Assembly: GCA_043228905.1 (NCBI GenBank)
Contig: JBHGNT010000086.1
Coordinates: 1 to 64,000, forward strand
Direction of reading: 5' to 3'
Source of the DNA: Azolla caroliniana
Taxonomy: Eukaryota; Plantae; Polypodiophyta
DNA length: 64,000 bases
Position 1 is the first letter of the stretch; every line of letters begins with the position of its first letter. Below, piece after piece: positions 11,201-55,757 of this stretch. Under the pieces are notes generated by a model. It had not been told where the DNA came from, did not search any database, and was given only the letters and a program-made list of their open reading frames with translations. The translations under genes and the position numbers were made by a program.

Positions 11201-11537
11201 TTCTTAAGGAGTCTATAAGCTCGTTGACTGTCAAAAACATTTGTCTAGTTTTGGAGTTGGATGAATTTTGGGGTGGGTGAGGTGGCACACCCACTTTAAG
11301 TTGATAGACTTGGCGGAAGTTTCTTGCCAAGGAGTCTATAAGCTCGTTGGTTGACAAAAACATTTGTCTAATTTTTTAGTTGGATGAATTTTGGGGTGGG
11401 TGAGGTTGATAGACTCTGAGGAAGTTTCTTAAGGAGTCAATAAGCTTGTTGATTGACAAAAACATTTGTCTAATTTTTGAGTTGGATGAAATTTGGAGTG
11501 GGTGAGGTGGTGCACCCACTTTATCAAGGTGATAGAC
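11201..11537 (+). repeat. Tandem repeat, 3 units of about 105-120 bp
   Basis: aaggagtctataagctcgttg...caaaaacatttgtcta...gttggatgaattttggggtgggtgagg occurs three times. Confidence 0.85.
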
Positions 11538-20595: not shown

Positions 20596-21313
20596 AACTC
20601 CCCCTTCACTCCGGCATGGGGTGTCTTACCAGTCCGATTCTCTTCCGGCATGCATCCAGCTTGTCGGGTGTCAGCACTTTGGTCAGCATTCTGACCCGTT
20701 CTCGGCCGTGTGGATCTTCTTCAGTGCGAACTCCTGGTCATCTACTCTTTCCTGGATCCAGTGATACCTCCGCTGGATATGCTTCGTCCGGGAATGGTAG
20801 GCCGCATTTTTAGCAAGGTGGATGGCACTTTGACTGTCGCAATAGAGTCGGTATTCCTCTTGCCGTATACCGAGCTCTCCGATGAAGTCCTTCATCCATA
20901 AAATTTCCTTGCCGGCTTCCACAGCCGCCATGTACTCCGCCTCCGTGGTTGACAATGCAATCGTCTTCTGCAGCCTCGACTGCCACGAAACAACTCCCCC
21001 TGCATATGTCATTACATACCCGGATGTAGACCGGCTGGTATCCACATCAGCCGACATGTCCGAATCGGTGAAACCGTCTAGTTGAGGTTTTCCAGAGCCG
21101 AATCGGAGACACATATTTGAAGTGCCCTTCAAATACCGGAGTATCCATTTGACTGCGTTCCAGTGCTCCTTGCCGGTGTCGGGGTAGTTGTGGTTCGTGC
21201 GGCGAAGTCACGGGGACTAAGGTTAAGGGGAGTTGAAGGAACTTAACTTTGAATAAGGCTTGTATGGTGATGATAGAATGGTTAAGGATAGTAAGATGAA
21301 GAGTTACAAGTAA

Positions 21314-21353
<40 letters not shown>

Positions 21354-21544
21354 GAGCATAGATAAAAGATAGAGACAATGTATGATTCAAGAAAGAAGAT
21401 TGAGACAAAGTATGATTCTAGAAAGAAGATTGAGACAAAGTATGATTCAAAGAACCAGAGTATATGATATAAACATGATGTATATTAAAAATATAATATT
21501 TTACCAACTTTACAATCCTTGATCGCAAGATGAATCTTTTCAAT

Positions 21545-21612
21545 ACCGACCCTTGATTTGAACCCTCGACCCCAACTTCGAAACGAGAGGTTCTCCACCC
21601 AATGAGCTAGTC
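21545..21612 (-). other. Degenerate tRNA-like element in the solo LTR (sense to the LTR, downstream of TATA)
   Basis: Minus strand TAGCTCATTGG (A box) ... GGTC GAGGG TTCAAATC (B box) at tRNA-like spacing; stems mostly broken. Confidence 0.5.
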
Positions 21613-21855
21613 TTCTTTACTTGATTATATTATTTTCCCTCTCTCCCTTGATTGATTCCCTTTTGTTTTCCTATCCCCTCTTTTTATAAGTATTTCCATG
21701 CATATGGTAATGGCATGCATGTAATGCACGAGTTACATCTGATGCATGATCGCCATTTGGCGCACATGCATTGCATGTGATGCATGATAGCCATCATGCT
21801 CATTTGAGCTCCCATGTATTGTGATAAGTATAATGATGGATATAATCTTAAAACA

Positions 21856-21926
21856 AATAATCTAGCTTAGTGGTGTATGCTTTGTGCTTGATATACAAGG
21901 TTGAGGGTTCAAGTCCCTCAATTTTA
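21856..21926 (+). other. tRNA-like cassette in solo-LTR U3 (antisense to the LTR)
   Basis: TAGCTTAGTGG (A box, 21863); anticodon-type arm TTGTG-CTTGATA-TACAA pairs; perfect T arm GAGGG-TTCAAGT-CCCTC; acceptor stem does not pair. Confidence 0.7.
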
Positions 21927-21992
21927 CTTAATACAATATTTAAGTTTATTCTTATATAGTGAAGCACATTCTTGACAACATTTCTAAAAACA

Positions 21993-22062
21993 AATAGCCT
22001 ACCCTAGTGGTATATACATTATGCTTGGTTTATAAGGTTGTGGGTTCAAGTGTTTGAAATAT
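21993..22062 (+). other. Second tandem copy of the tRNA-like cassette (period about 137 bp)
   Basis: TACCCTAGTGG ... TTATG-CTTGGTT-TATAA GGTT GTGGG TTCAAGT; flanks align with the 21856 copy. Confidence 0.6.
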
Positions 22063-25000
22063 TACTGAATTCAATATTTAAATTTATTTTTATATCGTGA
22101 AGCAAATCCTTCACGACACCAGGATTACTCATGAACCGGCTCACCACTCCGACTGCGTGTCCAATATCCGGTCGGGTACAAACCATTGCGTACATCAAGC
22201 TCCCGACGGCAGAGGCATATGGAATCTTCATCATATCTGCCTTCTCTCCTTTCGTCTTCGGGCTTTGCTTGCTGGATAGCTTGCAGTTTGCCGGAAGTGT
22301 CGATCCGACCGGTTTCGCATCTGTCATGTTGAACCTGTGAAGCACCTTTGTCACGTACTTCTCCTGTGACAACCATAATTGCTTCACTGACCGGTCCCGA
22401 ATGATGTGCATCCCCAGCATCTGTCTTGCCGGACCCAAGTCTTTCATTGAGAAGGTCCGGTTGAGAGCCTTCTTCAGCATCCGTATTTTGACTTGGTCCC
22501 GTCCGATGATCAACATGTCATCCACGTACAGGAGGAGTATCAGGAAGTCCCCTCCTTCGAACTTCTTCACAAACACGCAATGATCGGCCTGCGTCTTGTG
22601 GTACCCTTGATCGGTCATGAAGGAGTCGAACTTCCGATACCATTGCCGGGGAGCCTGCTTCAGTCCGTATAGGCTCTTCTTCAACCGGCATACCAGGTGC
22701 TCCTTCCCTTTCTCCACAAATCCTTCCGGTTGCTGCATGTAGATCTCCTCTTCGAGGTCGCCGTGAAGGAATGCCGTCTTCACGCCCAACTGCTCTACCT
22801 TGAGGTCCATGCTTGCTGCTATACTCAGCACCGTCCGGATGGAGGTCATCTTTACTACCAGGGCGAATATCTCGTCGAAGTCCACACCCTTCTTCTGCTG
22901 GAACCCCTTCACCACGATCCTGGCTTTGTATCTCGGGGGGTTGCCGACATCTCCCGGTTTCAACGTGAACACCCACTTGTTTCGGAGTGCCCGCTTTCCT
23001 TTCGGCAACTCCACCAATTCGTACGTATGGTTCTCATGCAGGGAATCCATCTCATCCTGCATGGCACTTAACCATTTTCGGCTGTGGGTGCCTTCCTTCG
23101 CTTCCTCGAAGCTTTCCGGCTCCCCCTCATCGGTCAGTAGAACATGCTCTGCATCCGGAAATCTCCGGGGCGCCCTTCTCTCTCTGAGAGGATATCTACG
23201 TCTTCGGGCTTCGGTAACCGGCTCCTCCATTTGCTCTTCATCCGAATCCAATTCGGGGTCTTGACCGGTTCCGGTCTCAACTTCCTCTACTTCTTCTTCT
23301 GCCGGTTCGGTATCCTCACCGTAACCGGCTGGTTCCTCGAGTGCTAACCGGTCTCTTGCCGGTTGGGTCTGCTCATCGTAGAGTCTATCCTTACCGGTCG
23401 ACTCGAAGTTCATTATCTTCTTCTCCGACTCCCAGTCGGCGAGCGTCTTGTCCTCCATGAAGATAATATCTCGACTCCGGAATACCTTCTTGTCGACCGG
23501 GTCCCACACTCGGTAGCCGAACTCATCGTCACCGTAACCGAGGAATATGCATGGCCGGGTCTTTGGATCTAACTTTCCTCTCCGGTCCTTTGCTACATGC
23601 ATGTACGCGAGACACCCGAACACCCTCAGATTCCGGTAAGACACTTCCTTACCGGTCCATACTCTCTACGGCGTGTCTCCGTCCAAGGGTACTGAGGGTG
23701 ATTTGTTTATCACATATGTCGCCGTCGACAGTGCCTCAGCCCAAAACTTCTTGGGTAGTTTTGCATGCGCTAGCATACTCCGGACCCTCTCCATTATGGT
23801 CCGGTTCATCCTCTCGGCCAGTCCGTTTAGTTCCGGCGTCTTCGGCACAGTAAATTCGAGCCGGATTCCCTTCGAGCGGCAGTACTCCTCGAACTGCCCT
23901 CGGTATTCTCCTCCGTTGTCTGCTCGAACCGCCTTCAGCTTCTGGCCGGTTTCTCTTTCCACTCTCGCGTGGAGCTCTTTGAAGACGGATAACACCTGAT
24001 CCTTCGTCTTCAGCGGTGTGGCCCACAGCTTCCGGCTGTGGTCATCTATGAACGTCACGAAGTACTGCGCTCCGGCATGTGACTTCGTGTCTACTTGACA
24101 CACATCCGTATGCACCAACTCCAGTGGTGCATTGCGTCTCATCGGTGGCCTTGGTCGGAAGGAGGTCCGGTTCTGCTTACCGGCCAGACAATCAGTGCAC
24201 TTCTCTAAGTGCACGTTCTTCACTGGAATGAGGTTGTCTTCTGCAAGCCTCTTCATCCCCTTCTCGCTCATATGACACAACCTCTTGTGCCACAGCTCAC
24301 CGGCAGTGTCGGATGCCACGTTCACTTCTTCCGGACATAATCGGGCATTCATCAGGTACAACGTGTTTACCTTCCAGGCCCGAGCCACAATCAGGCTCCC
24401 TTTGCTGAACTTCATGACACCGTTCTGGATGCTACCCGTGTAGCCTTCATCATCTAGCCGACCGACTGATATCAGGTTCAGACGAACTTCCGGAACGTGT
24501 CAGACATCCTTCAGCAGCAACTTGCATCCGGTTGGTGTTGTCAGCCACACGTCTCCCATGCCGACAATTCGGCATGTTCCTTCATTCCCCATCTAGACAC
24601 AGCCGTGATCACCGGCTGAATAGGATGAGAAGCATTTCCAGTCCGGGGTAAGGTGGAACGATGTTCCGGAGTCTACCACCCAGGTCATCTCGTCGCCGGC
24701 AAGGTATATTTCACTCTCCTCGGTGATGAGCATCAACTCTTCTTCACTTGCCGCGATAGCTGTCGTTCCCTTCCGGTCCGGCCCCCTCCGGTCTTTACCG
24801 TTCCGGTCCGGGGTTTGCTTTGAATCGGTACCGTCGGTTTCTTGTCTTTACGGAAATGCCGACAGTTCTTTTGGAAGTGTCCCGGCTTGCCGCAATAGAA
24901 GCAAGTAGGCCTCCCCCTTGACTTTGACCGTGTCCCCGACTTCTCCTGGTTCTGGGGACTACGGTTTCTATGTCTTCCGCGTTCCGATTCGGTAAGGAGC

Positions 25001-25612
25001 GCTTTGGAGTCGGAGCTCGTGTCTTTGTCTTTCCGACGCGCCTCCTCATCTAGCAAGCTCAACTTTACTCTTGCTAGGGATAACCGTTTTCCTTCCGGCC
25101 CAGCGTTGCCCAAAGTGACAACCAACGTCTCCCAGCTATCCGGGAGGGAACCGAGTAGGAGTAGCGCTAGTACCTCGTCGGCAAGAGGTACTTCCAATGA
25201 CGTTGCCTGGTGGATCAGCCCCTGGAAGGCATTCATGTGCTCCGCCATGCTGGAGCCATCTTGGTACCAGAGTCTTACCAACTTCCGGAATACCGAAACC
25301 TGATTGACAACATTTTTGTTCTGGAACATTATGCCGATCTTCTCCCAGAGCTCATGAGCCTTGCTCTCTTCATTGAAGTTGTTGTACAGGCTCATGTCGA
25401 TGAAGCACCGTATGTACGCCGTTGTCTTCATGTGCATCACCTCCCATATCGCGGCGTCGATTTTGTCCGGTCTCTTGTCCCCGAACTGAACCGGCAGCCA
25501 GAGGTCTTTAACAACGAGCATGTCCCTCATCTTCGACTTCCACACTGAATAGTTGGAGCCGGTGAGCTTGAACATGCCACCAAACGATTCGTCCATTTTC
25601 TGTGTCGATTTT

Positions 25613-25624
25613 GCTCTGATACCA
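25613..25624 (-). promoter_or_regulatory. Primer-binding site of copia-1 (tRNA-iMet)
   Basis: Minus strand TGGTATCAGAGC, 2 nt from the 5' LTR. Confidence 0.95.
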
Positions 25625-25626
25625 CT

Positions 25627-26409
25627 TGACGGGAACTCCTAGCTCCTTATGCGCAACGCTCGGCCACAACCGAGCTTCTTTTCATACACAAAAAACGGGA
25701 AATAAAACACGACACAGAGAAGAGAAATGGTGCACAGGAGGTTTACGTGGAAAACCCCAAACTAGGAGAAAAAACCACGGTAGCCCACGGGCTGCAAACT
25801 GTCACTATGTATGAATGTACAAAACAGTGAGTACACTGAGGCAACGACCTCGAACTCACGATCTTCGCCACAGGCGGCGGTTACAACAGAGGCAACGACC
25901 TCGTCTCTCTCTCTCTCTCTCTCTCTGTGTACAGTTACGCGCTCTCTCTTCTTCTTGCACCAACAAGGAAGAATGACAACAACTACAACAACTATTTAAA
26001 AGTTTGCCCTAAGTCATATTTATACTAATATGACTTTTCGGCTATTTACAAATGTAGCCACAATGGGCTCTCAGAAACATATTTACGAATATGTCTCTTC
26101 CTTCGGTTCATACCGGTTCTGCACCACCCGGCTCTCCGTAGCCGAGTACTCCTCATCCGGTTCACACCAGGCCTGCACCATCCGGCTCTCCGTAGCTGGG
26201 TACTACTCATCCGGTTCACGCCGGGCCTGTATCATCCGGCTCTCCGTAGCCGGGTACTACTCATCCGGTTCACACCGGGCCTGTATCATCCGGCTCTCCG
26301 TAGCCGGGTACTCCTCATCCGTTTCGGCCTTGGCCTATCGGCCTCGGCCGAGTTTGTTCGTCGGCATTGTTCTTCTCCCTTCCCATTCAGAGGGACCTGT
26401 CTCCCAACA
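25627..26409 (-). repeat. 5' LTR of copia-1 (783 bp) with an expanded 54-bp U3 repeat
   Basis: Same as the 3' LTR except three extra 54-bp units, a 14-nt shorter (TC)n and a few substitutions. Confidence 0.95.
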
Positions 26410-27914
26410 GTAAGTAGGGTTACTGCTTGAATGTTCTTGAATACTAGAAATTTTGTCATTAACTTGCTCAATATAGAAGTCTAAGTATATAGTTCCACTT
26501 ACTTGAAGAGGTTTCAATCCTGGGCTCAATGTTGTACCAATGTGTCAAATTAACTATTAAGTTGCAATTGAGGTCAATTACAACAAGTCGTCCATTGTGA
26601 AGGGCATTTTCCGAACTAGAAATTTTTTAACGATAGACCAACTTGTGAAAATTTCATTAAGAAATCTATATGTTGGCAAGGTTGTTTTAAACATATGGAA
26701 ATTCTAAATAAAGGCCCACCTTAATGAGGGTGCCACAGTACACCTATGGTTGGATACATAGTAGATAACTATGCATCATTCTTGCTGGATGCAAACGTGG
26801 GAGAATGAAGACCAAAAGATAGCTCCAATGTTGGGGCACCAAATGTCACTTTTACATGAAACCTCTTCTCCATTTATATAAGTTGAAAACCCTAAAGTGC
26901 CATGTTTACATTACAAGGCCATTGAGCATTAGCCATTGCTACCTAATAAAGGATAATTCTCCATAAATTACGATATGACCATGTTTCTTGCGTAAATTTG
27001 GTGTATAACCAATATTCTAGAGTGGAAATATTAAGCCTTAAACTTAAAGAATATAACATTATTTCCCAAGTTGGTACAAATTCATGTAAGTGACATCATT
27101 TGCCCAATAAAAACCCTAGGGAAGTAAACATTGATTATATCACTCACAAGGGTTTTGAACCCACTCACAAGTTGGAGGCCTTTGAAGAGCGTTGGCTAGA
27201 ATAAAAGGCCTTTAGACCCTCATTCACGATCCTAAAATTGATGCATTGTTACAGGCATGACCATAAATTATCCTGTGGTAAGGTTGTACCGTGATATTCT
27301 ATACATGTGGATAAAGCGTGAGGTTAAACGTGAGTGTAGCGAAGGGAGAATTACTTTTAATCCAAGGAATTGAGACAACCCATAAAGGCCAAGTGTGATC
27401 TTGTCTGGGGGCCTTAGGTTTGGCTATAAATATGAGGCCTAACTACCCTCATTTAAGACATAATCGACTATGTCAAGACTCTAATGTTATCGTGATCAAC
27501 TCTTGTAGCGAGTGTGCTAGCACCGGGTACGAGTCGATGCCACAACGGTGGTATGGGACGCCGATTGAGGCTCGAATCCGTCTTGATCCCTTTGCTCGGG
27601 GGTGGTCGGGTGGATCGCCACCCTTCTTTCTCTCTCCTCTCTCCTTATCATATGCTTACATTAGGATTAAGCTCTAACAATTGTTATTAGTTAATAGAGC
27701 GTTTTCCTAATGGTTCTTTTGTTGGATGGTGATCGATCGATGTTCGTTCGAGTTGGATTCAGATACGCATCAACAAAGGAACTTCAATATTTTCTTTTAT
27801 TATTATTTTTCTATTCTTTCTTCTCTCATTCTAATCATGTTTATGTCATTATTTAATCATTTCTATGATTCAATTATGTTGTAGTGGTAATCCTTTGGTT
27901 GTATAAAGCGTAAA

Positions 27915-28240
27915 TATGTTACATATGCATATGATGTCAATACCTCCATTACCATGTATTTGATATGCAATTTGTGTCGTATGCGTAAGAGGTCAATACC
28001 TCGATTGTGTATTACATTCACGTACATATGTTATGTATGCATATGAGGTCAATACCTCGATTGCGTATTATGTTCACGTACATATGTTATGTATGCGAAT
28101 GATGTTAATACCTCAATTATCATATGTTAGATATGCGATCTATGTCGTATGCGTAAGAGGTCAATACCTCAATTGCGTATTACGTTCACCCTTATCTTTG
28201 GATGTTACTTGTGCATAGAGGCTATATGCCTCGATTACGT
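27915..28240 (+). repeat. Minisatellite, about 6 units of 56-60 bp, core GAGGTCAATACCTC
   Basis: Core near 27932, 27989, 28045, 28101, 28158 and 28218. Confidence 0.8.
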
Positions 28241-28689
28241 ATTAGATTCTCAATTACATCATTTGTTGGTTATGTTTTGTTAACGATCTTTGATATATAC
28301 ATATGTAATCACATGTATATGTATTTAATTGTATAGATGTCACAAACATATATGTGTGTATATTAGGAATTTGTTACGTTATGTTAATTGATTGATGGTT
28401 GTCTTTAGGGTTTAGGATATTGTGGTCATCCTCACATTTTTGTGAGAATGGTGAAGTCACTATCCTTTTTTAACAAACTTTTTTTGTTATCCCCCTTGGT
28501 CACCTCGATTTTGCTACACGTTAGAATGAAAGAAGCATAGCCACAATGATGTTGTGAGTGTAAGAGCTTGACCCACTTTATGCGAGGTCGCCCTTATGAA
28601 ACAAGTATCGAAAATTCCGCACTCGTTACATGATTACGATGCCACCATGAGAACATCATTATGAAAAGCATTCATAATGGAGGAACCAT

Positions 28690-28818
28690 GTGATGGGCCA
28701 CGTGGGCCTACTACGAAAAAAAGGCTAGTGTTGGCTTTGCCAGGAATAGTACTGAGACAGAGAGGAAAATAGTACTAAGAGATGAATATTCATACTAAGA
28801 GGAAAAGAGGGTATAGAA

Positions 28819-28865
<47 letters not shown>

Positions 28866-29540
28866 GACAACGATATATTATGTGACAGAATATACAAGGA
28901 TGGCTAGGAGGCTTAAAATTGGCGTTGAACCGATTTGGTTCGAAATAATGCCTTGTGCCTCCTTTTATAGTGTTCTCAGGAGTACTCCTAAAGTTTCTAG
29001 AATGTTCCAGAGAAATCTGGAATATACATCAATTTTCTATAGTAAAACTTAAATGAAAATAATATTTTTAATATTACAACATATAGTTTAATGGTCAAAA
29101 GCTCGACCCATGTAACATAAGGTCATGGGTTTGAGTCTTGTTATATCATGATAGGCTTGACTATTAGGTTGCTCCTTATGGTATGCCATTGTAATGATGA
29201 GACTTGAGGTTGGGTAACATACCAACATAGTTTTCTAGTTAACGAGGGGGAATAAGGATACTACACACATATTTTTTCTTTAAAAAAAACATATATGTGC
29301 AAATGCCTTCATATATCTCTCATATGTATAAACATTAAATATTCAATAGGGGCAAGCCATATGGTTAACTGAAGTGTTTAATGGCTTTGTTCTCGAGGTC
29401 TTATGTTCAAATATGACCAAGACTATATAACATTATTGATGCATATCACTATAAAACATGTTTAGACTTTAGGTCTAAGTGCACTGCAGGGTCCTCGTAA
29501 TAGGACTTAAAGAGCCGAAACCACATGGGTGGGCACAAAG
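28690..29540 (-). mobile_element. LTR-like remnant (boundaries uncertain) with a tRNA-like cassette at about 29077-29148 (+)
   Basis: Minus-strand CTATAAAAGGAG (about 28959-28970) followed by (CT)n. On +, TAGTTTAATGG (29084) ... GGTC ATGGG TTTGAGT CTTGT. No TSD found. Confidence 0.4.
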
Positions 29541-29854
29541 ACGTAGTTTATTGTTAACATTTTTCATTAAACTATTCATGATACAAACAAACATGGTTGA
29601 GTCTCTGGGATTGCCATGTAAAAATTGATATAGAGATAAGGGAAAGACATTCGTTTGTCACTGCCATGGTTTTTAAAACATCTTTGTGTTACCATAGTTA
29701 CCTGATCTTGAACCTCATCTCATACCTCCAGAGGGGTATTGATGTGAGATCATGATATCGATGGCTGTTTGTCCATGATATGTTTACATCGTGGCGTTGT
29801 GTTATGGCTATTTATCTGACCCTATCCTATTTCTTTGCCAAATGTTATATTCTT

Positions 29855-32800
29855 ATGGCTCATAATAATGACCCGCTAATATCCTCCCAAGTGGAGGCAA
29901 TTCAAGGAACTCTTGGGGCAATCCAAATTGAGCATATTTTTTACAAATACAAAATTTCCCTAATTCTACCTTGAATGAGATTTCCGAACTTCAATAATGT
30001 CATGGTGATCTAGAAGCACAGGTCATTAGCATGCAATGCGATACTCATAAACTAGATGAATGTCAAGGTGAACCATCGTTTGTCATCAAGCCATTTATGG
30101 GGGAAAAAAAGGGAAGAACCGAAGAAGCAATCTGCACATGGGTTGGCTAATGGGAGTCTCCTTTTGAGCTCTATCCCAAGCCAGATAGTACGAAGATTGC
30201 ATATGTTGGTCGAGAACTAGGGGGTAAGGCCGCCGTCTAGTGGCGTGGGCTCCGAATTATGGGGAAATTGCCAGATACCTGGACAGACTTTGTCACGATT
30301 TTGGAGGGTCAATTTTTGGAACCTCCATCTCAGACCGAGGCAACACAAGCCTTAATGAACCTCTCTATCCAGAAATGTTCCTCACTAGAAGATTATGTTC
30401 ACCATACTAGAACCCAAATCCAAAAATCGGGTCTAGAAGGTGACAATTGGTTAATAGCTTGTTTTGTCAATGGCATCTCCAATTCGGACTATCATTAGAT
30501 AGTGCACGACAAGGATCCAAAATCCTTCGAAGAGGCCATTGAAATAGTTTTTTGTTATCAACACACTTTGAAGAAGGACCATAACAAACCCCAAGTGCCT
30601 ACGACTAAGTAGTCGCAATTTGCTAGAAAACGCAATACACCCAACGAATTCATGGATTGGGATTATAAGCGACAAAGTCCTTTTTGCGTGTTTTGAAAAA
30701 AGAAGGGTCACACAAAAGAGCAATGTCGGAAGCTCCAATGAAAAGAGCACAACAAGAACAACAAAGTTGCAGACCATAAAGGTTAGACTCTTGATGTCCT
30801 TGAGGCCTATACACATCATTTAAGTAGTTGTAAATGTTCTTTCCCTCACTATGTATTGGGACCCAATGATTTACTACGTGCAAATGGGTATATCAATGGA
30901 TCTCCAGTACAGTTCTTATTTGATTCGGGAAGCTCACATAACTTTGTGAATGATCGTTTGGTTCAGATATGGGGAATCCAACCCACCGTAAGTGATGACA
31001 CCTATAAGGTGCCCTTGGCTGATGGAAGAGTTCAATACATCAACAGGGCGATTCATTCATTGGCCATTAGCATTGATACTTATGTAGAACAAGTAGATTT
31101 CCATGTAATGAATCTTTCTACCATTGATGTAATATTAGGTTAGCCATGGTTTTTTAATAAAAACTCTTCTTTATCTATTGATTGGGTTCACCATTCAATA
31201 TCTTTTACATTGAATGATTGTACTCATTTTATTGAATGTGTAAGAAAACAATCGAGTCTTTCAATTCCTCTCCATCAGTATTTGAGTTGTCTTGTTTTAC
31301 TTTATGTTAATGTGTTCTTAATTCGGACATTCACATTTATATTATCAATAGCGTCCCGAATCATTTATCTTATTTTGAACAACAACTACTCAATGAAATC
31401 TTAAATGATTTTCGTTGTGTTTTTCCAATTGAACTACCACATGGGTTACCACCTAAACATAATATGGACCATCGTATAGATCTTTTAGCTGAGGTTGCAC
31501 CAATAAGTATACCTCCATATCGCTTAAGTAGATCCAAAGAGGATGAGGTATCTAAGCAACTTAAGGAATATTTACGAATGGGTTATATATGTTATAGTAA
31601 ATCTTCATGGGGGTGCACCGGTTCTCTTGGTAAAAAAGAAAGAGGGCACATGGTGTATGTGTATTAATTACCGACACTTGAATAAAGTGACGATCAAGAT
31701 TTCATATCCATTGCCATGGGTTGATGATCTGATTGACTGTCTCTAGGGAGCTCGATATTTTACAAAACTTGATTTCCATATGGGCTACCATCAAATTCAA
31801 ATAAGTACGTGTTATGGCCAGTATGAGTTTTTGGTCATGCCTTTTGGTTTGAGCAATGCTCTGGTCACATTTCAACAAGAAATGAATGACATCTTTCGAG
31901 AACAACTTGGAAAATTTGTCGTTATTTTTTTGGATGATATTCTAGTTTATAGCTGCCATACATTAGAAGAACATAGTAAACATGTCTACTTTGTTTTACA
32001 AACATTGCGCGACAAACAGTTCTATGCGAAAATCTCAAAATGTGAGTTCTTCAAGGAATCAATTACTTATCTAGGTCACGTCATAATCGAACAAGGAGTT
32101 GAAATTGATCCTTCCTGCATCGAGAAAGTCAAACTTTGGTCCACTCTTCAGAATATTCGAGAATTTCGATTATTCCTTGGTTTTGTCGGGTTTTTGCGAA
32201 AATCTCTTTGCAATTATTCCCAATTGACATTGTTGTATACTAATCTTCTGAAAGGTCAAATGCGTAAGTCTAAAAAACCTATAGTATGGAATGCTACTCT
32301 TAACCTCGCCTTTAAGGACTTGAAGGACCAGGTGCGCAAGGCTCCTTCGCTTCTCTTACCGGATCCTTCAAAACCTTTTCAAGTTGAAACCGACGCAAGT
32401 GATTATGCTATAGGTGTTGTTCTATATCAAGATGGTAAACCAATAGCATTTGAGAGTAAGAAACTTGATTCTACTGAATGTTGGTATACTGTTCAAGTAA
32501 AGGAATTATCTGCAGTTATCCATGCGCTAAATTCATGGCGTCATTATCTTTATGGAAATCGTTTTGTGGTAACTACGAACCACGAGTCCTTGAAATTTTT
32601 GTGACCAAAAAAACTTTAAGGGTCGCAAGGCACGACGGGTAGATCTCATCTAGGACTTTGATTTTTCCATACAATATCGTAAAGGTTCCATGAATACTAT
32701 CATTCATGCCCTTAGTCACATTTGTGAAGTAAACATGCTTAGCTTAACTGAAATAACATTAGATCTTTATGATCACCTTCGAGGAAAGTATCTTGATGAT

Positions 32801-33447
32801 GAATATTTTGCAAAATACTGGGCAAGAGTTGAGCCTGGAACAAATATCACCACACCCTTGAAGGAATTCTTCCACAATGCTAATGGTATGCCCTATCATA
32901 ATGGGAAGGTTTGTGTTATAGATTTGCTTAAGGTCAAAAAGAGAATTCTTTTTGAATACCATGATGCACCCTCAACATGGCACCTTGGAATAAATCGCAC
33001 ACTTGTTCTCATCTCCACTCAATTCTATTGGCCTAAGATGCGTCCTGACATACATATCTACGTGACTAAATGTCATCTTATTCAATGTCAGGTTAACAAA
33101 GTTGAGCGACTTAAAGCCGTTGGACTTTTACATCCCTTGGAAATTCCCAACAATAAGTGGGAAAGTATATCCATGGATTTTATTGTTAGCATTCCTCGCA
33201 CCCAAAAAGGCCATGATGCCATCTGGGTTGTGGTTGATAGACTAACTATAGTAAAATGGCCAAATTTATTGCAGTTACTAAAGCCACGGTAACAACTCCT
33301 GAATTGGCTTACCAATTCGTTGATGAGTTATTTCGTTTTATGGGTTACCAATGGATATTGTGAGTGATTGAGATCCAAAGATTCCTAGTGATTTTTGGAC
33401 GCAAGTCTGTAAGATGTTAGAAACTACATTGAGCATGAGCTCCACGG
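29855..33447 (+). mobile_element. Decayed Ty3/gypsy (chromovirus-like) gag-pol, truncated in integrase by LTR A
   Basis: Protease FLFDSGSSHNF, RT VMPFGL/FLDDIL, RNase H ETDASDYAIG, integrase H-H-C-C and SMDF; many stops and frameshifts; ends at TTLSMSST just before the expected HPQ motif. Confidence 0.9.
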
Positions 33448-34108
33448 TGTCGTGAAGAAAACCGTCCCCAGGCGCAAACCGTGTAGAGCGTGTGTGAACC
33501 GGCCCTTACACGTGGGCACGCCCCTTGTTGTATAGTAGATAGGTAGGCACAAAAGTCGAATCCTAGGTAGCAATATTCTATAGAGAGAATTAATGTGATG
33601 TAAACGGATGAAACGGTCTCCCTCCTTGAGCTATAAAAGAGAGGGAGACGGGGGGAGAAGGTATCACGCGCTAGAGGGGACGAAGTGCTGTCGGACTGGG
33701 ACCAAGCTCTTCTTCTCTGTCGTTCTCCATAGCTTTCTTTTGCGCAGGTTCTTAGGAGGCTGATTCTGCTCCGTGGAACGCCCGTGTGCTTCCGGCAGAA
33801 TCTCCATCTTGCTCCCCTGTGTGCGTGGGTGATTAGGCGTCGACATCCATCTTGCCGACCTGATCGGCAATAACCGTTCGAGTCGTTTGCATACATACAA
33901 ATACATACATATATTTATATACATACACTAGTGTTCTCAACTTGTGTCTCCTGTGTTGTTGGGCCGCGTCCCCGTGCGCTTCTTTGTCTATACGTGTGTG
34001 AGCGTCTCTCTCTCTCTCTCTCTCTCTCTCCCGTTTCTCACCTATTCCTCGGTCCAAGACCCCAGTGGTCCCGCCTTGTTCTCCACGCACGTGCGTAACA
34101 ATGCGACA
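33448..34108 (+). mobile_element. LTR A (661 bp), 5' LTR of Trp-primed gypsy element A
   Basis: TGTCGTGAAG...TGCGACA, TATAAAAGAG near 33632; followed by a Trp PBS and a gag start MASAVDRIVSAR similar to KAVDRVVELE in element B. Confidence 0.88.
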
Positions 34109-34112
34109 TCTT

Positions 34113-34130
34113 TGGTGAACCCGACGTGAA
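34113..34130 (+). promoter_or_regulatory. PBS of element A, complementary to tRNA-Trp
   Basis: TGGTGAACCCGACGTGAA is the reverse complement of the plant cytosolic tRNA-Trp 3' end (TTCACGTCGGGTTCACCA, from memory); 4 nt from the LTR. Confidence 0.85.
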
Positions 34131-34214
34131 CATGCGGCAGAGGAGTGGAAGATGAGGGGGTCGGACCTCGCAGAAGCCATGGCTTCGGCTGTGGACCGTA
34201 TAGTGAGTGCGCGC

Positions 34215-35315
34215 TGTCGTGAAGATTTTCGGCAATAGTGTGAAAATCCCATAAAACGTACAAAATCGAGTATGAATCACGTAATACAATAATTGTGAAG
34301 ATAACATTTTTAATATCTAAGTACAAAATGATCGAGGTTTCGAATGCACTTTATTACACAAGAAATAGACAACTAAATGTCAAGATATGAGGGTATAAAG
34401 TTTGTGAAAAGAAAAGAGAAAATTGTGAGATATCCCACATAGGCACGACAAATACGGCTCTCATCATATATAAGGTGGAGCAAAAGATATTATCTTTGTG
34501 TCTATGTGTGGAGCATAAAGAGTTCAAGGTAACTTGAACTTAGAGTGGAGGTGGCTAGCTACTCGAAAAGGGTTTTGGCCAACCAAAACCGGACCGGCGA
34601 TGGAGCCGGTGATCCGACGGCATCCGACGGCAATCCGGCGGCAACATGCGGCGTCGGTATCCGGGGTCGGCGTCGGCATCCGACGGCGGCACTGGCATCC
34701 GGTGTCGGCGTCGGCATCCGGCGGCGACACCGGTATCCAATGGCGGCACCAGTATTCGGCGACGGGATCCGACGATGGTATCCGGCGAACCGGCGACTAG
34801 ATAAAATAAATATATAAAAATATATACATATTTACATATACAAGGAGGGCAAGTATAGATTCGAACCTTGCACCTCCAAGTTAGAAGTCAAATGGCTTAC
34901 CATTAAGCCATGGTATTTAGTTGAAATTATATTTCTATCATTGTACTTTTACATGTAAATTCTCATCCATGAGAGCTAAAATGGGTGACATGGTTAGCAT
35001 GCACCACATGTAATACTTAAGTGCCAAATGGCAAACATGCAATTTATGCATGTCTTGTACCCTCACATGTATCATATGCATGAGAGCATCTATAAAAGAG
35101 GGAAGGGGGAGGAGAAAAACATGGGTTTTTTTTTTGTATGAAAATTAAGAGGAAGAAATTCGTTATCAAATTGATCGTGTAATCTCAACTTCTCTCTTTC
35201 CCAATCTATCTTAAGTTCTTTCTCGCCAAAGCTTGTATCGACTCTAAATCCTTCTGGTCCAGAACCCCGGCGGTTCCGCCTCACGATCCGCTCGTAGTGA
35301 CGGATCTTCACGACA
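34215..35315 (+). mobile_element. LTR B (1101 bp), 5' LTR of Trp-primed gypsy element B, nested in the gag start of A
   Basis: Perfect 12-bp terminal inverted repeat TGTCGTGAAGAT/ATCTTCACGACA; GC-rich GGCATCCG(A/G)CGGC repeats at about 34595-34797; TATAAAAGAGGG at 35091. Confidence 0.9.
34848..34917 (-). other. tRNA-like cassette (Arg-UCU-like loop) in LTR B U3, antisense to the LTR
   Basis: Minus strand TGGCTTAATGGTAAGCC (A box, perfect D stem GCTT/AAGC), TGA-CTTCTAA loop, GGTTCGAATCT (B box); other stems degenerate. Confidence 0.65.
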
Positions 35316-35323
35316 TAATTAAG

Positions 35324-35341
35324 TGGTGAACCCGACGTGAA
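35324..35341 (+). promoter_or_regulatory. PBS of element B (tRNA-Trp)
   Basis: TGGTGAACCCGACGTGAA, identical to 34113-34130, 8 nt after LTR B. Confidence 0.85.
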
Positions 35342-35376
35342 CGAGGCGGTAGGAAGGATCAAGTCGAGATTAATAC

Positions 35377-37581
35377 TTGGAGATGGCGTCCTCAAGCAAC
35401 CAAGCAGGAGAGCTCGAAAGGATGATGCTAATCGTCGAGCAAATGATGAGATCTCAGGACAACGACGCGAGCGTGGAGAAGGCTGTCGATCGTGTCGTAG
35501 AGCTCGAGGGCCAATTCGATGGAAGGAACGTTACGAAGTTCCTTGATGCATATAAGAGGGAGATGAATCAAAGGGACGTGTCCGAGGCACGTCAAATCGC
35601 AAGCTTCAAGAGAGTTGTCGCCAACAACATCCAAAGACGTGTCATCGAGCTTCAAGAAGGAAAGACAACATGGTCTGAGTTCGAGAAAACGATACTAGCG
35701 GAGTTTGTGACTGAAGACTCAACGAGGATGACTCGACATGCCCTGATGAAGTGGATAGAGAAGAAGAATAAGAAGATGAGCGTCTCGAGGGTGTACGACG
35801 AATTCGACCAGATGTTTAGTCGTCTCCCCAATACAGACCAAGTATTGCTTGAAGAGGACAAGACTTTGTACTTCTTCAAGGCCGTGGACATAAAGGATAG
35901 ACGGGAGTTGGGGACTCTTCTCGAAGATGATACCCAAGCAAATGGGCTCGTAGCGGACTGGATCGCGGTGAAACGGGCATGCAATAGGCTCGACAAGCGT
36001 CGCCAATGGGTTCATGACACCGACTTGATGGGACCGACTACCACGGAGAAAGCAAGACCGCCGAAAGTAGCTGAGCCGCCGAGACAAAGTAACGTGGAAG
36101 AAAAGAAGATTGATGACAACATCATTGAAGAGCTAGCGAAGAAGTTCGAGAAGGTCACGCTAGCCAACATGAATCGTCGGGGCCCTAAAGGAAAAGAACC
36201 CTTTAGATGCGTGTGGTGCGATAGCATGGACCACATGAGAAGGGATTGTGCGAGCCTTCGAGAGGCGATTCGACAAAATATCGTATACATAGAGGACAAC
36301 ATGATCTGCTCAAGCGAGACTAGAAGACCCCTACGGGTGAATTTCGGAAGAGGAGGAATGAAGAAATCTATGGAGGATGCCGATGTGACTCATGTGGATG
36401 CGATGCACTATGCTGCGTCGGCCGGAATAAGAGTCGGGAAAGACAAGACTGAAGCTGCTAGAGCGGGAGCAAAGTTTTGGACTTCCGTTCTCGAATATGA
36501 GAAGAAGGGAAAAGTCACATCGAACGAGGTAGAGCTTGCAGACCGAAGCGTGCAAAGCATAACTGGGTGGTCGGATCCGGTGGACGACAACACCATACTT
36601 GCAGAGGTGATGTGCGACAACCACGAGGTGTTCGTCGAAGAAAAGAGAAAGAGAATAGAAGAGCAAGGGCCATCAAAAAGACATGAAACAAGGAACGCGA
36701 AAAAGAAGGACGATGCGGAGACGAGTCAACCTTTACAAACGGAGGAACGAGAATCAAGCCGAAAAGGGGAGCCGAGCATACGAGTTGAAGAAACGGTTCG
36801 GCCCGTGAAGGTTGGTGTCGAAGACCCCGCTCGGAGGACAAGGACCATACCTACCTATAAGCTAAGGTCAGACATAGAGCAGACGACGGACCTAAAGAAG
36901 ATTCTCGAAGAACGAGTTCTTGATAGCCATGTAACTTTGTCCTTGAGGGAATTGCTTGGCATTACGAAGAAGGAGTTCCATGACACGATCGTGGACCTTG
37001 TAAAGAGAAAGAGACAACAATCGGACGAGGAAGAAGAGAAGCCGCAGAAAGCAAAAACGAATGCCATAACGATGGCAAGAGACGAAATCGATGAAGATAT
37101 GGTGGACAGCCACTACACTCGACCTCATTGGGCACGAGCGACAACGGAGACGCCGGTGAAGATCGGGGAGAAGAAAGAGACCGTCGTAGCCTTGATCGAC
37201 CACGGCTCGGAGATCAACCTCATGTCAACCGACTTCTACAAAAAGGGAAGATGGCCAATCAATACAAACCACGGATGGAAGATTCGCGCGGCAACAAAGT
37301 CTACGGAGGACTTGTACGGAGCTTGTCCCAATGTCAAAGTCACGATCGGGGATGTGGAGATGGATGAACACTTCTTCGTACAAGAATCGGCATCGCATCC
37401 TGTCATCCTAGGGCAACCTTATATCACATCATCTCGGATGGAGACCAAAGTGTTCGATAATGGAGCAACCTTCGCACGAATAAAGAGTCTTGACAACCAA
37501 AGATCGGTCCAATTCCTAACAGTGCGAGCCAATCATGAAAGGAATCGAGATAGTCTCGGAGGCGAATCCTCGGATTTTTAG
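35377..37581 (+). CDS. Element B Gag-protease ORF (about 732 aa; first ATG at 35383)
   Basis: Uninterrupted ORF; zinc knuckle CVWCDSMDHMRRDC; retroviral-type aspartic protease ALIDHGSEINL...VILGQP; ends SSDF-stop. Confidence 0.9.
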   Translation: MEMASSSNQAGELERMMLIVEQMMRSQDNDASVEKAVDRVVELEGQFDGRNVTKFLDAYKREMNQRDVSEARQIASFKRVVANNIQRRVIELQEGKTTWSEFEKTILAEFVTEDSTRMTRHALMKWIEKKNKKMSVSRVYDEFDQMFSRLPNTDQVLLEEDKTLYFFKAVDIKDRRELGTLLEDDTQANGLVADWIAVKRACNRLDKRRQWVHDTDLMGPTTTEKARPPKVAEPPRQSNVEEKKIDDNIIEELAKKFEKVTLANMNRRGPKGKEPFRCVWCDSMDHMRRDCASLREAIRQNIVYIEDNMICSSETRRPLRVNFGRGGMKKSMEDADVTHVDAMHYAASAGIRVGKDKTEAARAGAKFWTSVLEYEKKGKVTSNEVELADRSVQSITGWSDPVDDNTILAEVMCDNHEVFVEEKRKRIEEQGPSKRHETRNAKKKDDAETSQPLQTEERESSRKGEPSIRVEETVRPVKVGVEDPARRTRTIPTYKLRSDIEQTTDLKKILEERVLDSHVTLSLRELLGITKKEFHDTIVDLVKRKRQQSDEEEEKPQKAKTNAITMARDEIDEDMVDSHYTRPHWARATTETPVKIGEKKETVVALIDHGSEINLMSTDFYKKGRWPINTNHGWKIRAATKSTEDLYGACPNVKVTIGDVEMDEHFFVQESASHPVILGQPYITSSRMETKVFDNGATFARIKSLDNQRSVQFLTVRANHERNRDSLGGESSDF

Positions 37582-39099
37582 AGCGGACTATTGAAGCATG
37601 GGGCACAAATAGTCGGAGCAATCACAAGACCCCACAAGAAAGAAGAGCGTGTGGATTGCAAGGAGAAGCAACATGTGTCACACCTAGTGGCGCATGTAAA
37701 CTAGTACTACCCGACAAGAAGCACAAGCGCCGGATACAAGAATTCGAGAAGATGCTGAAAGAAGAGAACATAATAGAAGAAGGAGAGTTTGTGACTCATA
37801 TTATGGAAGAAGCCTCATTTAACGACACCATCGGCGAAATCGAGGACGTCGTGGACTTGAGCTATCTTCACAACCAACGTGTGATTTCGGTTAACTCCGT
37901 CAACATGTACGCTATCATCGATGAATACTGTCGTGGCATCTCGATGAAGGAAGCTGACATCAACACGAAATATAAAACAGTGGATAAGAAGATCAAGCCA
38001 GTTGCGGTTCCGCTACCGGAAGATAGCTGGCAAAAGATGAAGGAAGTCGCTAACGATCCAAGCTTAAGAGATCTGAAGAAGATAGGTCATGACTTCACCA
38101 AAGAGACGAAGGGGAAGCTACGAGTTGGAAAGGAGGATTTCCTTCTCCCTGAAGAGGAGCGAATGTTTCGCGATATGCTTGAGAGACATGGGAAGGCTTT
38201 CGCATTCTTCCCACGAGAAATCGGATGCGCCGACCCAAAGGTTATAGAGCCGATGGTGATCTTCACGGTGCCTCATGTGCCTTGGAACTTGAAACCGATA
38301 CCGGTTCCGAGAGCACACCTTCCGAAGCTGATCGAGCTCTTAAAGGAGAAGGTGAGTATGGGAATTCTAGAACCGTCGAATGCTCCTTATTCCAATAGGT
38401 GGTTCACGGTGCCGAAGAAGAATGGATCATTGCTATTCATCCAAGATCTTCAACCCGTGAACAAGGTGACAATTCGAAATGCCGGAATCGGTCCGAGCGT
38501 GGACGAATTTGCCGAAGCGTTTGCGGGCCGGTCCATCTACTCCATTGGCGATCTCTACTCCGGATATGACCAATTCCAATTGGCGATCGACAGTCGGGAC
38601 ATTACAACCATGAGGACTCCGATCGGGCTTGTGCGGATGTGTACCTTACCCCAAGGCGCAACGAACTCGGTGGCTCATATGGTGAATGCCAAGAATAAAG
38701 TCTTGAAGGATTGCATTCTGGACATCACGATGCCATTCTTGGATGATATTCCGATAAAAGGATGTTCGGATGAGGAGAAAGATGAATCGAAAGATAAGGA
38801 AGGTTGTAGAAAGTTCGTTGCGGATCATATGAAAGATTGCGAGAAGGTGCTTCAAAGGCTCGAAGATGCGAATTTGACATTTTCGGGAGAAAAATCCACA
38901 TTCGGGCAACCGGAGATCTTGGTGGTAGGTCACTTGTGTGGAGCATACGGCCGGAAGCCCTCGCCATCCAAAGTGAACGCAATCCAAGACATGAAAGAAG
39001 AATGCGAAAACCAAACGGAGGTTCGAAGGTTCCTTGGAGCGTGCGCATTTTATCATATATGGATTCCTCACTACGCTCATGTCGCCGAACCGTTATATG
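37572..39099 (+). CDS. Element B Pol (RT) in the -1 frame, truncated before RNase H and integrase
   Basis: -1 frame open from 37554; RT motifs DLYSGYDQ, LPQGATNS, FLDDIPIKG, RRFLG; homology stops after HVAEPLY. Confidence 0.9.
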
Positions 39100-39255
39100 C
39101 ATCTTGCCCCGTCTATTCTATGTTATTGTCTTATTCTTTCTCACATCCTCTTGAGCTAAGCTTCCATTTTGTGTCTTATTCTTTCTCCTCTACTCCCTAG
39201 TCCAAGACCCTCGTGGTCCCGCCCCTTCTACACGCATGCGCGTAACAACGCAACA
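39100..39255 (+). mobile_element. 3' end of an LTR-A-type LTR
   Basis: gtccaagaccctcgtggtccgcc...cacgcatgcgcgtaacaacgcaaca aligns with the LTR A end (gtccaagaccccagtggtcccgcc...cacgcacgtgcgtaacaatgcgaca). Confidence 0.8.
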
Positions 39256-40719
39256 ACGGCAAGGTTCAACTCACTCTCCTTGGTGATGAGCATTAGTTCT
39301 TCTTCACTTGCCGCGATCTTCATTGTTCCCTTCTGGTCCGGGCCTTGCCCCGAACCGTTTCGGTACTGTCGGTTCCCTTGTCCTTCTAGAAATGCCGACA
39401 GTTCTTTTGGAAGTGCCTCGGCTTGCCGCAATAGAAGCAAGTGGGCCTCCCCCTTGACTTTGACCGTGTCCCTAACTTTTCCCGGTTCTGGGGACTTCGA
39501 TTCTTTTGTCTTCCGCATTCCGATTCGGTAAGGAGGGCTTTGGCATCGAAGATCACCTCCTTGTCTTTCCGATGCGCCTCCTCATCTAGCAAGCTCGACT
39601 TGACTCTTGTTAAGGATAGTTGTTTTCCTTCCGGCCCGGCGTTGCCCAACGTGACAACTAACGTCTCCTAGCTATCCGGGAGGAAACTGAGCAGGAGTAG
39701 AGCAAGTACCTCATCGGCGAGAGGTACTTCCAACAAGGTTGCTTGGTGTATCAGCCCCTGGAAGGCATTCATGTGCTCCGCCATACTAGAGCCGTCTTGG
39801 TACCGGAGCCTCATTGGCGTTCGGAATACCGAAACCCGATTAACAACATTTTTGTTCTGAAACATAATGTCGATCTTCTCCCAGAGCTCATGAGCCTTGC
39901 TCTCTTCATTGAAGTTGTTGTACAAGCTCATGTCGATGAAGCACCGGATGTATGTCGTTGTCTTCATGTGCATCACCTCCCACACCGTGGCGTCGATCTT
40001 GTCCGGTCTCTTGTCCCCGAATTGAGTTACCGTCAACCAAAGATCTTTAACCACCAACATGTCCCTCATCGTCGACTTCCACACTGAGTAGTTGGAGCTG
40101 GTGAGCTTGAACATGCCGCCGTAAGATTCTTCCATTTTCTGTGTTGCTTGCTCTGATACCAATTTGATGAGAAACGCACAGAATATCGCTCGGCTATAAC
40201 CGAGTAGTAAGTCACTTCTATAAGAATCAAACACAGAAATGGGAAGTGGAGAGTACACAAGGAAGTGACACAGGATGTTTACGTGGAAAACCCTAATAGG
40301 GAAAAACCACGGGAACCCACAAACTCCGAACTATCACTATGAAGAGAAGGGGATACAATTTGAGACTCGGAGGCAACAACCTCGACCTCTGTTTCTTCGC
40401 ACAATGGCGGTTACAACAGAGTATTGGTATGTATCTCTCTCTCCCTCACTCTCTCTCTGTACAACAGTTACAGCAATATAACAGCAACACAATCACACTT
40501 CACACACTAAAGTGATTGCCCTAAGTCATATTTATAGTTATATGAACTTAGGGCTATTTACAAAGATAGCCTCAATGGGCTTGTTCAAGACATATTTACA
40601 AATCTGTCTTCTCTCCCGATTCTCACCAGGTCTCCTCCGGTTTCCGGATCTCTTCTGGTTCTCACCGGGTCCTCTTTATTCAACACCGGATCCCATCCGG
40701 AGAGACCGATTTCCCAACA
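39256..40719 (-). mobile_element. Copia-2: truncated relative of copia-1 (5' LTR 40165-40719, Met PBS 40150-40161, gag from 40135)
   Basis: Gag MEESYGGMFKL... closely parallels copia-1 MDESFGGMFKL...; contains a stop and frameshift; cut just before the protease. Confidence 0.92.
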
Positions 40720-47149: not shown

Positions 47150-47686
47150 GATTAGGATATGTCAATGAAAGAGCTTTCCCAACAATAGGGGGGCATATAT
47201 GTGAACAAAGCGGTTTGAGCTTAATCCTTGATGTCTAAATACTTTGATTCCTTCTCCTTAAACAGGTGTTCGAATAAGAGTGCAATATGTGATGTGTGAG
47301 TGCATGTGTGAGACATACGATGTGTGATTGCCACTTGGTGTACATGTCCTAACGTATGATTTATGAAAGCCATGTTTTATCTAACTCAGAACATTGTGTT
47401 TGATAATGGATAATGTATTATCCTAGTGGCTTATATCGATTGGTTCATATGTGAGCTTATGGGTTCAACACAACATATGACACTTGCAATACTATTTGAA
47501 TTTATTTTCATATCGTTAAACGAACCGAACCCATTACATATGACACTTGCAACACTATTTGAATTTCTTTTCATATCATGAAACTATTGCTTCACAAAAC
47601 ATGCATTTGAGATAAGCTTGAGGTGCTTTGTACTCACATTTGTCCTCCTATTGTTGGGAAAGCTCTTTCATTGGCATCTCCCAATC
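47150..47686. mobile_element. MITE/foldback-like element with about 85-bp imperfect terminal inverted repeats
   Basis: 47150-47233 is the inverse of 47603-47686 (core caatgaaagagctttcccaacaatagg exact); internal short tandem duplication; no TSD seen. Confidence 0.6.
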
Positions 47687-51728: not shown

Positions 51729-52010
51729 CCAAGGTCAAACTACATCCATTGTGCTTGTTTGCGACAAGATTAGTACATCATGGTTTCCTTGTATTAACAT
51801 GGGTTTGAAAAGGAGGTATTTGATAGTAGTGGTACACTCCAACTAACCAGCAAGGGGACACATTGTGGAATCTATCCAAGGTCAAACTACATCCATTATG
51901 TGTGTTTGTGATATGATTAGTACATCATGGTTTCCTTGTGTTAACATGGGTTTGTAGGGGAGGTCTTTGACAGTAGGGGTACACTCCAACTAACCAACAA
52001 GGAGACACAC
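51729..52010 (+). repeat. Tandem duplication, period about 147 bp
   Basis: ccaaggtcaaactacatccatt...ggtacactccaactaacc occurs twice. Confidence 0.8.
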
Positions 52011-55120: not shown

Positions 55121-55757
55121 CTGTGTGTTGTAGAGAAAAAAAGAAAAGGAAAAAGAAAAGAGGATAACAAAGCAGAGGAGGAAAATGCAAAATGAGGAGA
55201 ATTTTTTTCTAAATAAGAAGAAAAGGATTTTTAGGAAAAATAAAAATAAAATTTAAGAACAAAGGAAAGAAATTCTAAATAGATAACAAAGAAGAGGAGG
55301 AAAAATGGGGGAAAAACAAATGGAAATGAAAAAAAAAAACAGTTTTAACTAGGGAAAACAAAAATTTAAATGAATAATAAAAAATCAAGCTGACAAAAAT
55401 AAAATAAAATTGTGGTTTAAATGAGAACCATGAAGTATAACAAGCATATCAGCACCACCCACCTTCCCTTCACACATCCACCCACAAACAAAAAAGGCTT
55501 GGCTTAGCCTAGCCTACCCTAATCCTGCAGTGTAGGGGAGCAAGGGCACCACCATATCTCTCTCCTCCTCCCTCTGGGTTAGGGGTCTCCATGTACTCTG
55601 TTTTTGTTTAGGGTTTCCTTGTATTCTATTTTCCTTTTAGGACTCCCTTGTATCTTTGAGAATTTAGGGTTTTATTTCTCTCCATTTCCTCATTTGGCTC
55701 TTTTTTTTTTTTGTTTATACTCTGTTCAAATTACATTTTCTTTTTCAAAACCCTACA

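Follow-up and report, generated by a model that had tools for sequence, protein, structure and literature searches.

The closest described counterparts of the arrangement reported here are the Helenus (TRIMp3) elements, in which tRNA-derived sequence lies within the long terminal repeats (LTRs) of TRIMs (terminal-repeat retrotransposons in miniature). According to the sections of Kojima 2024 used here (PMC10886601), Helenus elements are noncoding, measure 311 to 1,263 bp in total with LTRs of at most 323 bp, and include a single plant case, in Selaginella, with a 5-bp target-site duplication; their RNA polymerase III (Pol III) promoter is proposed to transcribe the element. Cassandra and Ajax carry a 5S rRNA-derived promoter in TRIM LTRs, and transcription of Cassandra, also noncoding, begins in the 5S part and copies the element. 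The same sections state that "not a few" Repbase LTRs are tRNA-like, only the TRIMs being pursued there, and argue that autonomous partners, which need Pol II, are unlikely to have LTR sequence in common with TRIMp3. In the parts of a 2026 sugar beet paper available to us (PMC13570524), tRNA-derived LTR parts are named only for Cassandra and Helenus/Ajax. Here we describe tRNA-derived units in the LTRs of Ty3/gypsy elements in a 64-kb stretch of the fern Azolla caroliniana (contig JBHGNT010000086.1, positions 1 to 64,000; "the window") and in related loci. The main unit lies antisense in U3, upstream of the Pol II TATA box.

The likeness to Helenus, as far as the cited sections describe it, is that the LTRs contain tRNA-derived sequence in which boxes A and B, but not the tRNA fold, are conserved, and which does not serve as a primer. 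The differences lie in size (carrier LTRs alone are 0.7 to 1.15 kb here, and the internal parts of families C and D, introduced below, 1.7 to 2.3 kb), in coding (our family B has gag-pol), and in the antisense orientation of the main unit; neither miniature size nor a Pol III placement suited to transcribing the element was found. Cassandra, which the first-pass annotation of this sequence had named as precedent, is related, a Pol III promoter being inherited in a plant LTR in both cases, but its promoter is of 5S rather than tRNA origin, and Helenus is closer (cited sections of PMC10886601). Antisense tRNA-like units in coding plant gypsy LTRs are undescribed in the literature searched, most subscription papers lying outside its coverage; the sections used of PMC6786969 with its supplement files, the main supplementary PDF being outside that coverage, contain nothing on antisense LTR units, nor do sections of PMC11963269 and PMC3485330 bear on the matter.

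Antisense units upstream of the LTR promoter

The two carrier LTRs first noticed in the window, a solo LTR (family S) and the 5′ LTR of element B (LTR B), lie where the first-pass annotation placed them (Table 1) and share, as it had proposed, a CATG...GCCAAATGGC block followed by a TATA box; the block is 76% identical between families S and B, and the TATA box is kept across eight S and B LTRs. Unit 1 of the solo LTR, 167 bp upstream of its TATA box, is tRNA-shaped: it gives a full-length match to Rfam RF00005 of 27.8 bits, just below the 29-bit cutoff, and was the only unit that Rfam found in the window (none in 12 loci). The LTR B unit was matched by neither Rfam nor ARAGORN; it scored 29.4, third in the window, with a scorer built from A- and B-box patterns plus cloverleaf stem pairing, and its alignment to the solo unit is gap-free throughout. 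That scorer yielded six window matches of ≥20 versus a mean of 0.75 in 12 shuffles, whose best scores ranged from 14 to 29, one shuffle reaching 29. The top window scores were the four units annotated earlier plus a new one at 29077; the other units absent from the earlier list are the one at 47412 and an A-box remnant in LTR B. A tandem copy and a sense unit in the solo LTR, also annotated earlier, are both real; unit 2 has a decayed T stem and A box, and the sense unit, previously assigned to U3, has the TATA box upstream of it and hence belongs to R/U5. LTR A has no cassette by either the scorer or a model trained on the units, as the first-pass annotation had noted.

Relatives came from a metagenome scan for the junction of LTR end and primer site, which gave at least 122 loci, 80 of them with long flanks; they were selected on a Trp-type primer site, come from several assemblies, some with collapsed repeats, and are not independent copies. 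We analyzed 66 LTR ends, namely, 63 with ≥400 bp upstream and three window LTRs, leaving out one duplicate locus and two bacterial-looking loci. Among the LTR ends listed, 12 of the 66 held 15 antisense matches of ≥22, whereas 10 shuffle sets held none; sense matches at this threshold numbered 3, versus 0.2 in shuffles. The carriers form four families: S (solo LTR, L052, L055, and L078), B (LTR B, L022, L033, and L050), C (L001, L066, and both LTRs of L079), and D (the 3′ LTR of L058, with two unlike units, D1 and D2). L052 and L055 have two antisense units each and L078 has one; the distance from the unit 5′ end to the TATA box is 138 to 233 bp in 12 LTRs.

The antisense unit is present in 11 of 33 complete LTRs (those with a visible start, counted by hand, two starts being uncertain); most LTRs of the lineage, including three large clusters to one of which LTR A belongs, lack it. 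The carriers had been described as autonomous gypsy elements. Family B is gag-pol coding, but two of the four families are without a gag or pol match (L001, L079, and L058, families C and D). The internal parts of these nonautonomous derivatives span L001:836-2800, L058:455-2757, and L079:734-2390; those of L001 and L058 hold single open frames of ∼620 to 645 codons with no match to the window gag or pol. A gag tree made by a quick method from 47 rows, many half-filled, places the carriers in at least two separated clades. Only three antisense and four sense rows could be labeled, and each of the two labels requires two changes, which is no better than shuffled labels; the tree shows only that the carriers are not one gag clade.

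The A and B boxes, not the cloverleaf, are conserved

Sixteen antisense units align without gaps over 72 columns and are thus free of indels from one box to the other. Columns that vary little or not at all correspond to tRNA positions T8 and A14, TGGT of the D loop, AGGT of the variable loop, and GGTTCNA of the T loop. Identity between families is 0.73 in the A box and 0.74 in the B box, falling to 0.38 between the boxes and 0.29 to 0.33 in the flanks (random, 0.28). The GTTCRA core of the B box is intact in 14 of 16 units. Stem pairing is not kept: 53% of cloverleaf cells pair, versus 52% after shuffling (acceptor, 34%; D, 44%; anticodon, 68%; T, 73%). A functional tRNA gene was rejected as a candidate, given this pairing and the absence of any ARAGORN tRNA in the window and 33 loci. 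What the units do possess is the layout of a type 2 Pol III promoter, A and B boxes at tRNA spacing.

The S unit is covered by contigs of DNA runs that carry four organism labels (707 and 1,113 on the wider stretch; 152, 162, and 146 on the narrow S-unit stretch in three runs). Variation at ≥4% affects 15 of the unit's 72 positions in contigs of three DNA runs, all 15 lying among the 56 positions outside the boxes and none among the 16 box positions (Fisher P = 0.014). The test is a modest one: we chose the box positions, differences private to the reference enter the count of variable sites, and related runs were pooled, as were both tandem units. We consider it probable that the boxes are under selection.

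An inherited slot with probably exchanged bodies

That the cassette is an inherited module, rather than a set of chance SINE (short interspersed nuclear element) insertions, was the view of the first-pass annotation, and we share it with high confidence. The units occupy the same slot in four LTR families, with conserved boxes and an unconserved fold. None of 13 units has a recognizable target-site duplication, the words shared by their flanks being 4 to 7 nt long, as in shuffles. No free unit copies were found in the window and 121 loci (∼277 kb), loci that were chosen for their LTRs; additional clear matches there lay in LTRs or LTR-like DNA, except for those in L036 and L018. The latter are near-complete tRNA copies outside LTRs (L036:1152-1222, presumably Arg-like, and L018:2982-3040, presumably initiator-Met-like), and the L036 copy lies ∼170 to 240 bp outside the start of an A-cluster LTR. 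A SINE origin of the units is nevertheless plausible. Like SINE2 elements, they combine a tRNA-derived head that contains boxes A and B with decay of the acceptor arm, but they lack a target-site duplication, a common body or tail, and, in the DNA searched, free copies.

The units had been described as alike in position and different in sequence. The slot does appear inherited, but the cassette body is only 37% alike between S and B in the inter-box parts and 20% in the 3′ acceptor parts, as opposed to 64% in the 45 bp adjoining the unit; within S or B, the inter-box and acceptor parts vary about as much as the promoter block. Families B and C have similar bodies (0.64) and no common block, C and D have a common block and different bodies, and L001 joins a D-type 3′ end to a C-type U3. 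These mismatches argue that LTR segments were shuffled; families appear to have exchanged them across a breakpoint in or close to the A box, a process that retains the slot and alters the body. In S versus B, the body was probably exchanged while the slot was inherited. Inter-box identity among the S, B/C, D1, and D2 bodies is 21 to 40%; either several tRNA-derived donors entered one slot or one very old unit diverged outside its boxes. A BLAST search with the L022 unit returned weak matches to phage tRNA-Asn only (E values of 0.06 to 9). The B, D1, and S bodies may resemble Lys, Val, and Pro tRNAs, respectively, a tentative lead.

Lineage, primer site, and target

Element B has a DUF4100-like gag, and its reverse transcriptase (RT) has named relatives in Riccia, Adiantum, and Calypogeia (45 to 71% identity). 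Viral contigs held no pattern match and no RT relative, and none of 11 primer-site matches in prokaryote genomes was an LTR junction. An identical 18-nt primer site follows LTRs A and B and the LTRs of S, C, and D relatives, including the solo-LTR relatives L052, L055, and L078; in element B, we take it to match tRNA-Trp. NCGN precedes 15 of 16 usable LTR starts in relatives, a count that sets aside nine starts preceded by a purine tract and two uncertain ones. All three window insertions follow NCGN, and the solo LTR is flanked by CCGG and CCAG, an NCGN target with one change.

On the basis of target and primer site, we label the lineage Phygy-type. Phygy is a nonchromovirus Ty3/gypsy group with a 4-bp NCGN target and, in 81% of elements, a tRNA-Trp primer site, described as specific to Physcomitrella (Neumann et al. 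2019; sections of PMC6317226). The elements here have the NCGN target and Trp-type primer site in common with it but come from a fern, and the parts of PMC6317226 available to us do not mention tRNA-like LTR units.

The antisense unit might conceivably anneal a host tRNA as the second part of a primer site, or prime itself. Its orientation, by which the genomic RNA would contain a tRNA complement close to its 3′ end, fits such a role, and split primer sites are known for yeast Ty3. We regard this as extremely improbable: the longest match to a primer 3′ end is 3 to 7 nt and involves only the T-loop word, bodies differ among families that use one primer site, and normal purine tracts precede the LTRs. 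Self-priming and a split primer site were rejected on the shortness of those matches.

Sense units downstream of the TATA box

The model trained on antisense units also finds sense units in R/U5, best in L116 (E value, 2e-5) and weakly in L025, L121, L094, L114, L035, and L033 (E values of 0.02 to 0.7). They are located in R/U5 of S, B, E, and L116/L107 LTRs and retain the B-box core, whereas the A box is often decayed. The common ancestor of S and B likely had outward-facing units on both sides of the TATA box.

These sense units, together with the short internal parts and missing gag and pol matches of C and D, would be expected if a Pol III promoter drove the element's RNA as in Helenus or Cassandra, at least from the sense unit of short nonautonomous derivatives. 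The best-kept units, however, are antisense and point out of the element, so they cannot drive its RNA; the elements are several kilobases long, T runs follow closely on the units, a Pol II TATA box is conserved, and the sense units are decaying. We consider such a role very unlikely.

Proposed role of the units

Our tentative preference, held at somewhat less than an even chance, is that the units are putative landing pads for TFIIIC and TFIIIB that keep the Pol II promoter of the LTR open against silent chromatin. TFIIIC would bind the A and B boxes of the antisense unit and place TFIIIB in the ∼170-bp AT-rich gap that it would have in common with the Pol II TATA region. Pol III and Pol II promoters would then stand back to back across a stretch poor in nucleosomes, and silent chromatin of the distal U3 or the host flank would meet a barrier. 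If Pol III RNA is made at all, it would be a short by-product, because T4 runs follow soon after 13 of the 16 units. The bracket would be closed in S and B by the sense unit downstream of TATA, likewise outward-facing but decaying. Each round of replication copies U3 from the 3′ LTR, so the element would take the module along. The LTR B unit sits between a CpG-dense repeat (38 CpG in 208 bp) and the CpG-free promoter block, and the solo LTR unit lies no more than ∼50 bp from the LTR outer end. Barriers of the TFIIIB/TFIIIC kind have been described in yeast and insulators formed by tRNA genes in animals (sections of PMC9540200), as have boundaries at B2 SINEs (sections of PMC8136502); these too have A/B-box DNA beside a Pol II promoter or chromatin border, but they are host loci or free SINEs, whereas here the site is built into the LTR. 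The broader proposition that fern gypsy elements of autonomous type took up various tRNA-derived Pol III promoters time and again at corresponding LTR positions, the outward-facing TFIIIC sites bracketing the Pol II promoter as a self-carried insulator against silencing, is rather doubtful.

A number of observations weigh against the landing-pad reading. The antisense unit is dispensable: 22 of 33 complete LTRs, including those of the large A clade, are without it, and it is therefore not essential. By our pattern, the A box is canonical in just 10 of 16 units, and B boxes are damaged in L033 and L078, both contigs of high coverage. In L033 and L050, the CpG of the family B B box has decayed on one strand or the other, a hint that many copies of the unit are methylated. 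The sense unit of family B is eroding or half deleted, LTR B, where only the A-box remnant survives, included. About 30 contigs per run diverge from the reference at 21819 and have other upstream sequence. The units of C and D were found via their boxes, and two tRNA donors are alike at the boxes by origin; between-family box identity is thus no sign of selection by itself. Active yeast tRNA genes repress nearby Pol II promoters, the opposite sign (sections of PMC5340127), and the parts of a plant barrier review available to us name no plant tRNA-gene barrier.

The missing units, the damaged boxes of L033 and L078, and the decay of sense units would also be expected if the units were passengers, SINE heads or tRNA copies left without function in ancestral LTRs, their box conservation being an artifact of detection. 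The AT-rich microsatellite after the B unit could be a worn SINE tail, and a SINE insertion is what Kojima proposed as the origin of Helenus (sections of PMC10886601). Against passengers stand the unlike bodies that share one slot and one orientation behind either of two promoter blocks, the 16 units without an inter-box indel, the invariant boxes of the S contigs, and the lack of target duplications and of free copies of the bodies in ∼277 kb. We judge this account unlikely.

Box conservation would also fit if the unit dampened the LTR promoter, or if short antisense RNAs tuned silencing or acted as decoys in tRNA-fragment pathways. T4 runs lie within 34 nt of the unit end in the 13 units mentioned above and CAA lies just upstream in 9 of 16, counts that have no computed null and come from AT-rich DNA; the presence of an upstream TATA near −30 differs among units. 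CAA and TATA are used by plant tRNA genes (sections of PMC3082873), and the repression of Pol II neighbors in yeast would agree with a brake. Families B and C both retain a 10-bp alternative hairpin around the B box (34846-34870), which in L001 shows one double change, but the covariation term of this fold is unfavorable (+0.84). Neither the cloverleaf nor the RNA sequence is conserved between families, and a constitutive brake would bring the element little gain. Such a brake or RNA therefore strikes us as quite improbable. Among RNA or guessed-RNA runs, X19 and X5 gave no contigs and X7 gave three, none over the cassette; contigs from such runs cannot reveal the absence of a short RNA, and the result counts neither way.

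Other features of the window

Table 1. LTRs, tRNA-like units, and associated features in the 64-kb window
Feature	Position	Strand	Remarks
Solo LTR, family S, Phygy-type	21177..22118	−	Inside copia RT gene
Sense tRNA-like unit, solo LTR	21543..21616	−	Downstream of TATA, R/U5
Predicted Pol II TATA box, solo LTR	21681..21688	−	
Spacer and CATG-rich promoter block, solo LTR	21689..21855	−	Common to family B
Antisense tRNA-derived unit 1, solo LTR	21856..21927	+	RF00005 match
Boxes of unit 1, solo LTR	A box 21863-21874, B box 21906-21917	+	
Antisense unit 2, solo LTR	21993..22064	+	Part of 137-bp tandem duplication
Additional antisense unit	29077..29149	+	107 bp upstream of TATA, unrelated LTR-like stretch
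Weaker second candidate unit	29355-29425		Same LTR-like stretch as 29077-29149
LTR A, same lineage	33448..34108	+	No cassette; internal negative control
Trp-type primer site after LTR A	34113-34130		
LTR B, 5′ LTR	34215..35315	+	GCGC precedes
GC-rich tandem repeats, U3 of LTR B	34590..34797	+	Far side of cassette
Antisense tRNA-derived unit, LTR B	34846..34917	−	172 bp upstream of TATA
Spacer and CATG-rich promoter block, LTR B	34918..35090	+	0 CpG in 173 bp
Predicted Pol II TATA box, LTR B	35091..35097	+	
A-box remnant of sense unit, LTR B	∼35162..35179	+	Alignment with L033, L050, L114, and L121
Primer-binding site, element B, tRNA-Trp type	35324..35341	+	
gag (DUF4100-like) and pol (RT), element B	35374..39200	+	
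Additional decayed unit	47412..47495	+	In degenerate S-like LTR end

Two units in Table 1 were found with models not trained on them, that at 29077-29149 with an E value of 8e-6 and that at 47412-47495 with one of 8e-5. The former lies in an LTR-like stretch (28690-29524, minus strand) with a TATA near 28968 followed by a CT repeat; by BLAST, this stretch is unrelated to Phygy-type LTRs, and its one clear and one weak antisense unit hint that the antisense layout extends beyond the Phygy-type lineage. The LTR end with the latter unit is flanked by 62-bp inverted repeat arms (47150-47211 and 47625-47686). The 5′ terminus of family S and E (L035) LTRs is a short perfect hairpin (TCGTGAAG...CTTCACGA; 22099-22118 in the window).

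LTRs A and B belong to a nest (29900-40609) in which LTR A interrupts the integrase of a decayed gypsy pol, element B is inserted at the start of the gag of A, and the B pol is cut near 39110-39255 by an A-like LTR end, after which comes a copia fragment; the pol is interrupted by this other LTR-element sequence near 39110-39200. The 137-bp doubling of the S unit is of the same size class as local tandem duplications of 70 to 150 bp elsewhere in the window (11199-11537, 13737-13948, 51729-52009, 58581-58820, 59745-59892, 62021-62230, and 63389-63540). A glycine decarboxylase P gene of the host has its first coding exon at 55668-57239; the best named matches of this fragment, over the whole query, are in Ceratopteris and Adiantum (76 to 78%), which points to a fern host.

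Implications for LTR promoters and plant barriers

Pol III promoters in LTRs have hitherto been described only for miniature, noncoding elements, which they are thought to transcribe. The backward placement of the units beside an intact Pol II TATA box means that here they do something else or nothing. Such units could inflate the tRNA-gene counts of genomes of this kind. If they are TFIIIC barriers, these are transposons carrying their own insulator, and theirs would be the first plant barrier of the tRNA-gene type in the literature searched. Because sister families with and without the unit occur in many copies in one genome, the question of whether plants have tRNA-gene barriers would become testable from methylation and chromatin data.

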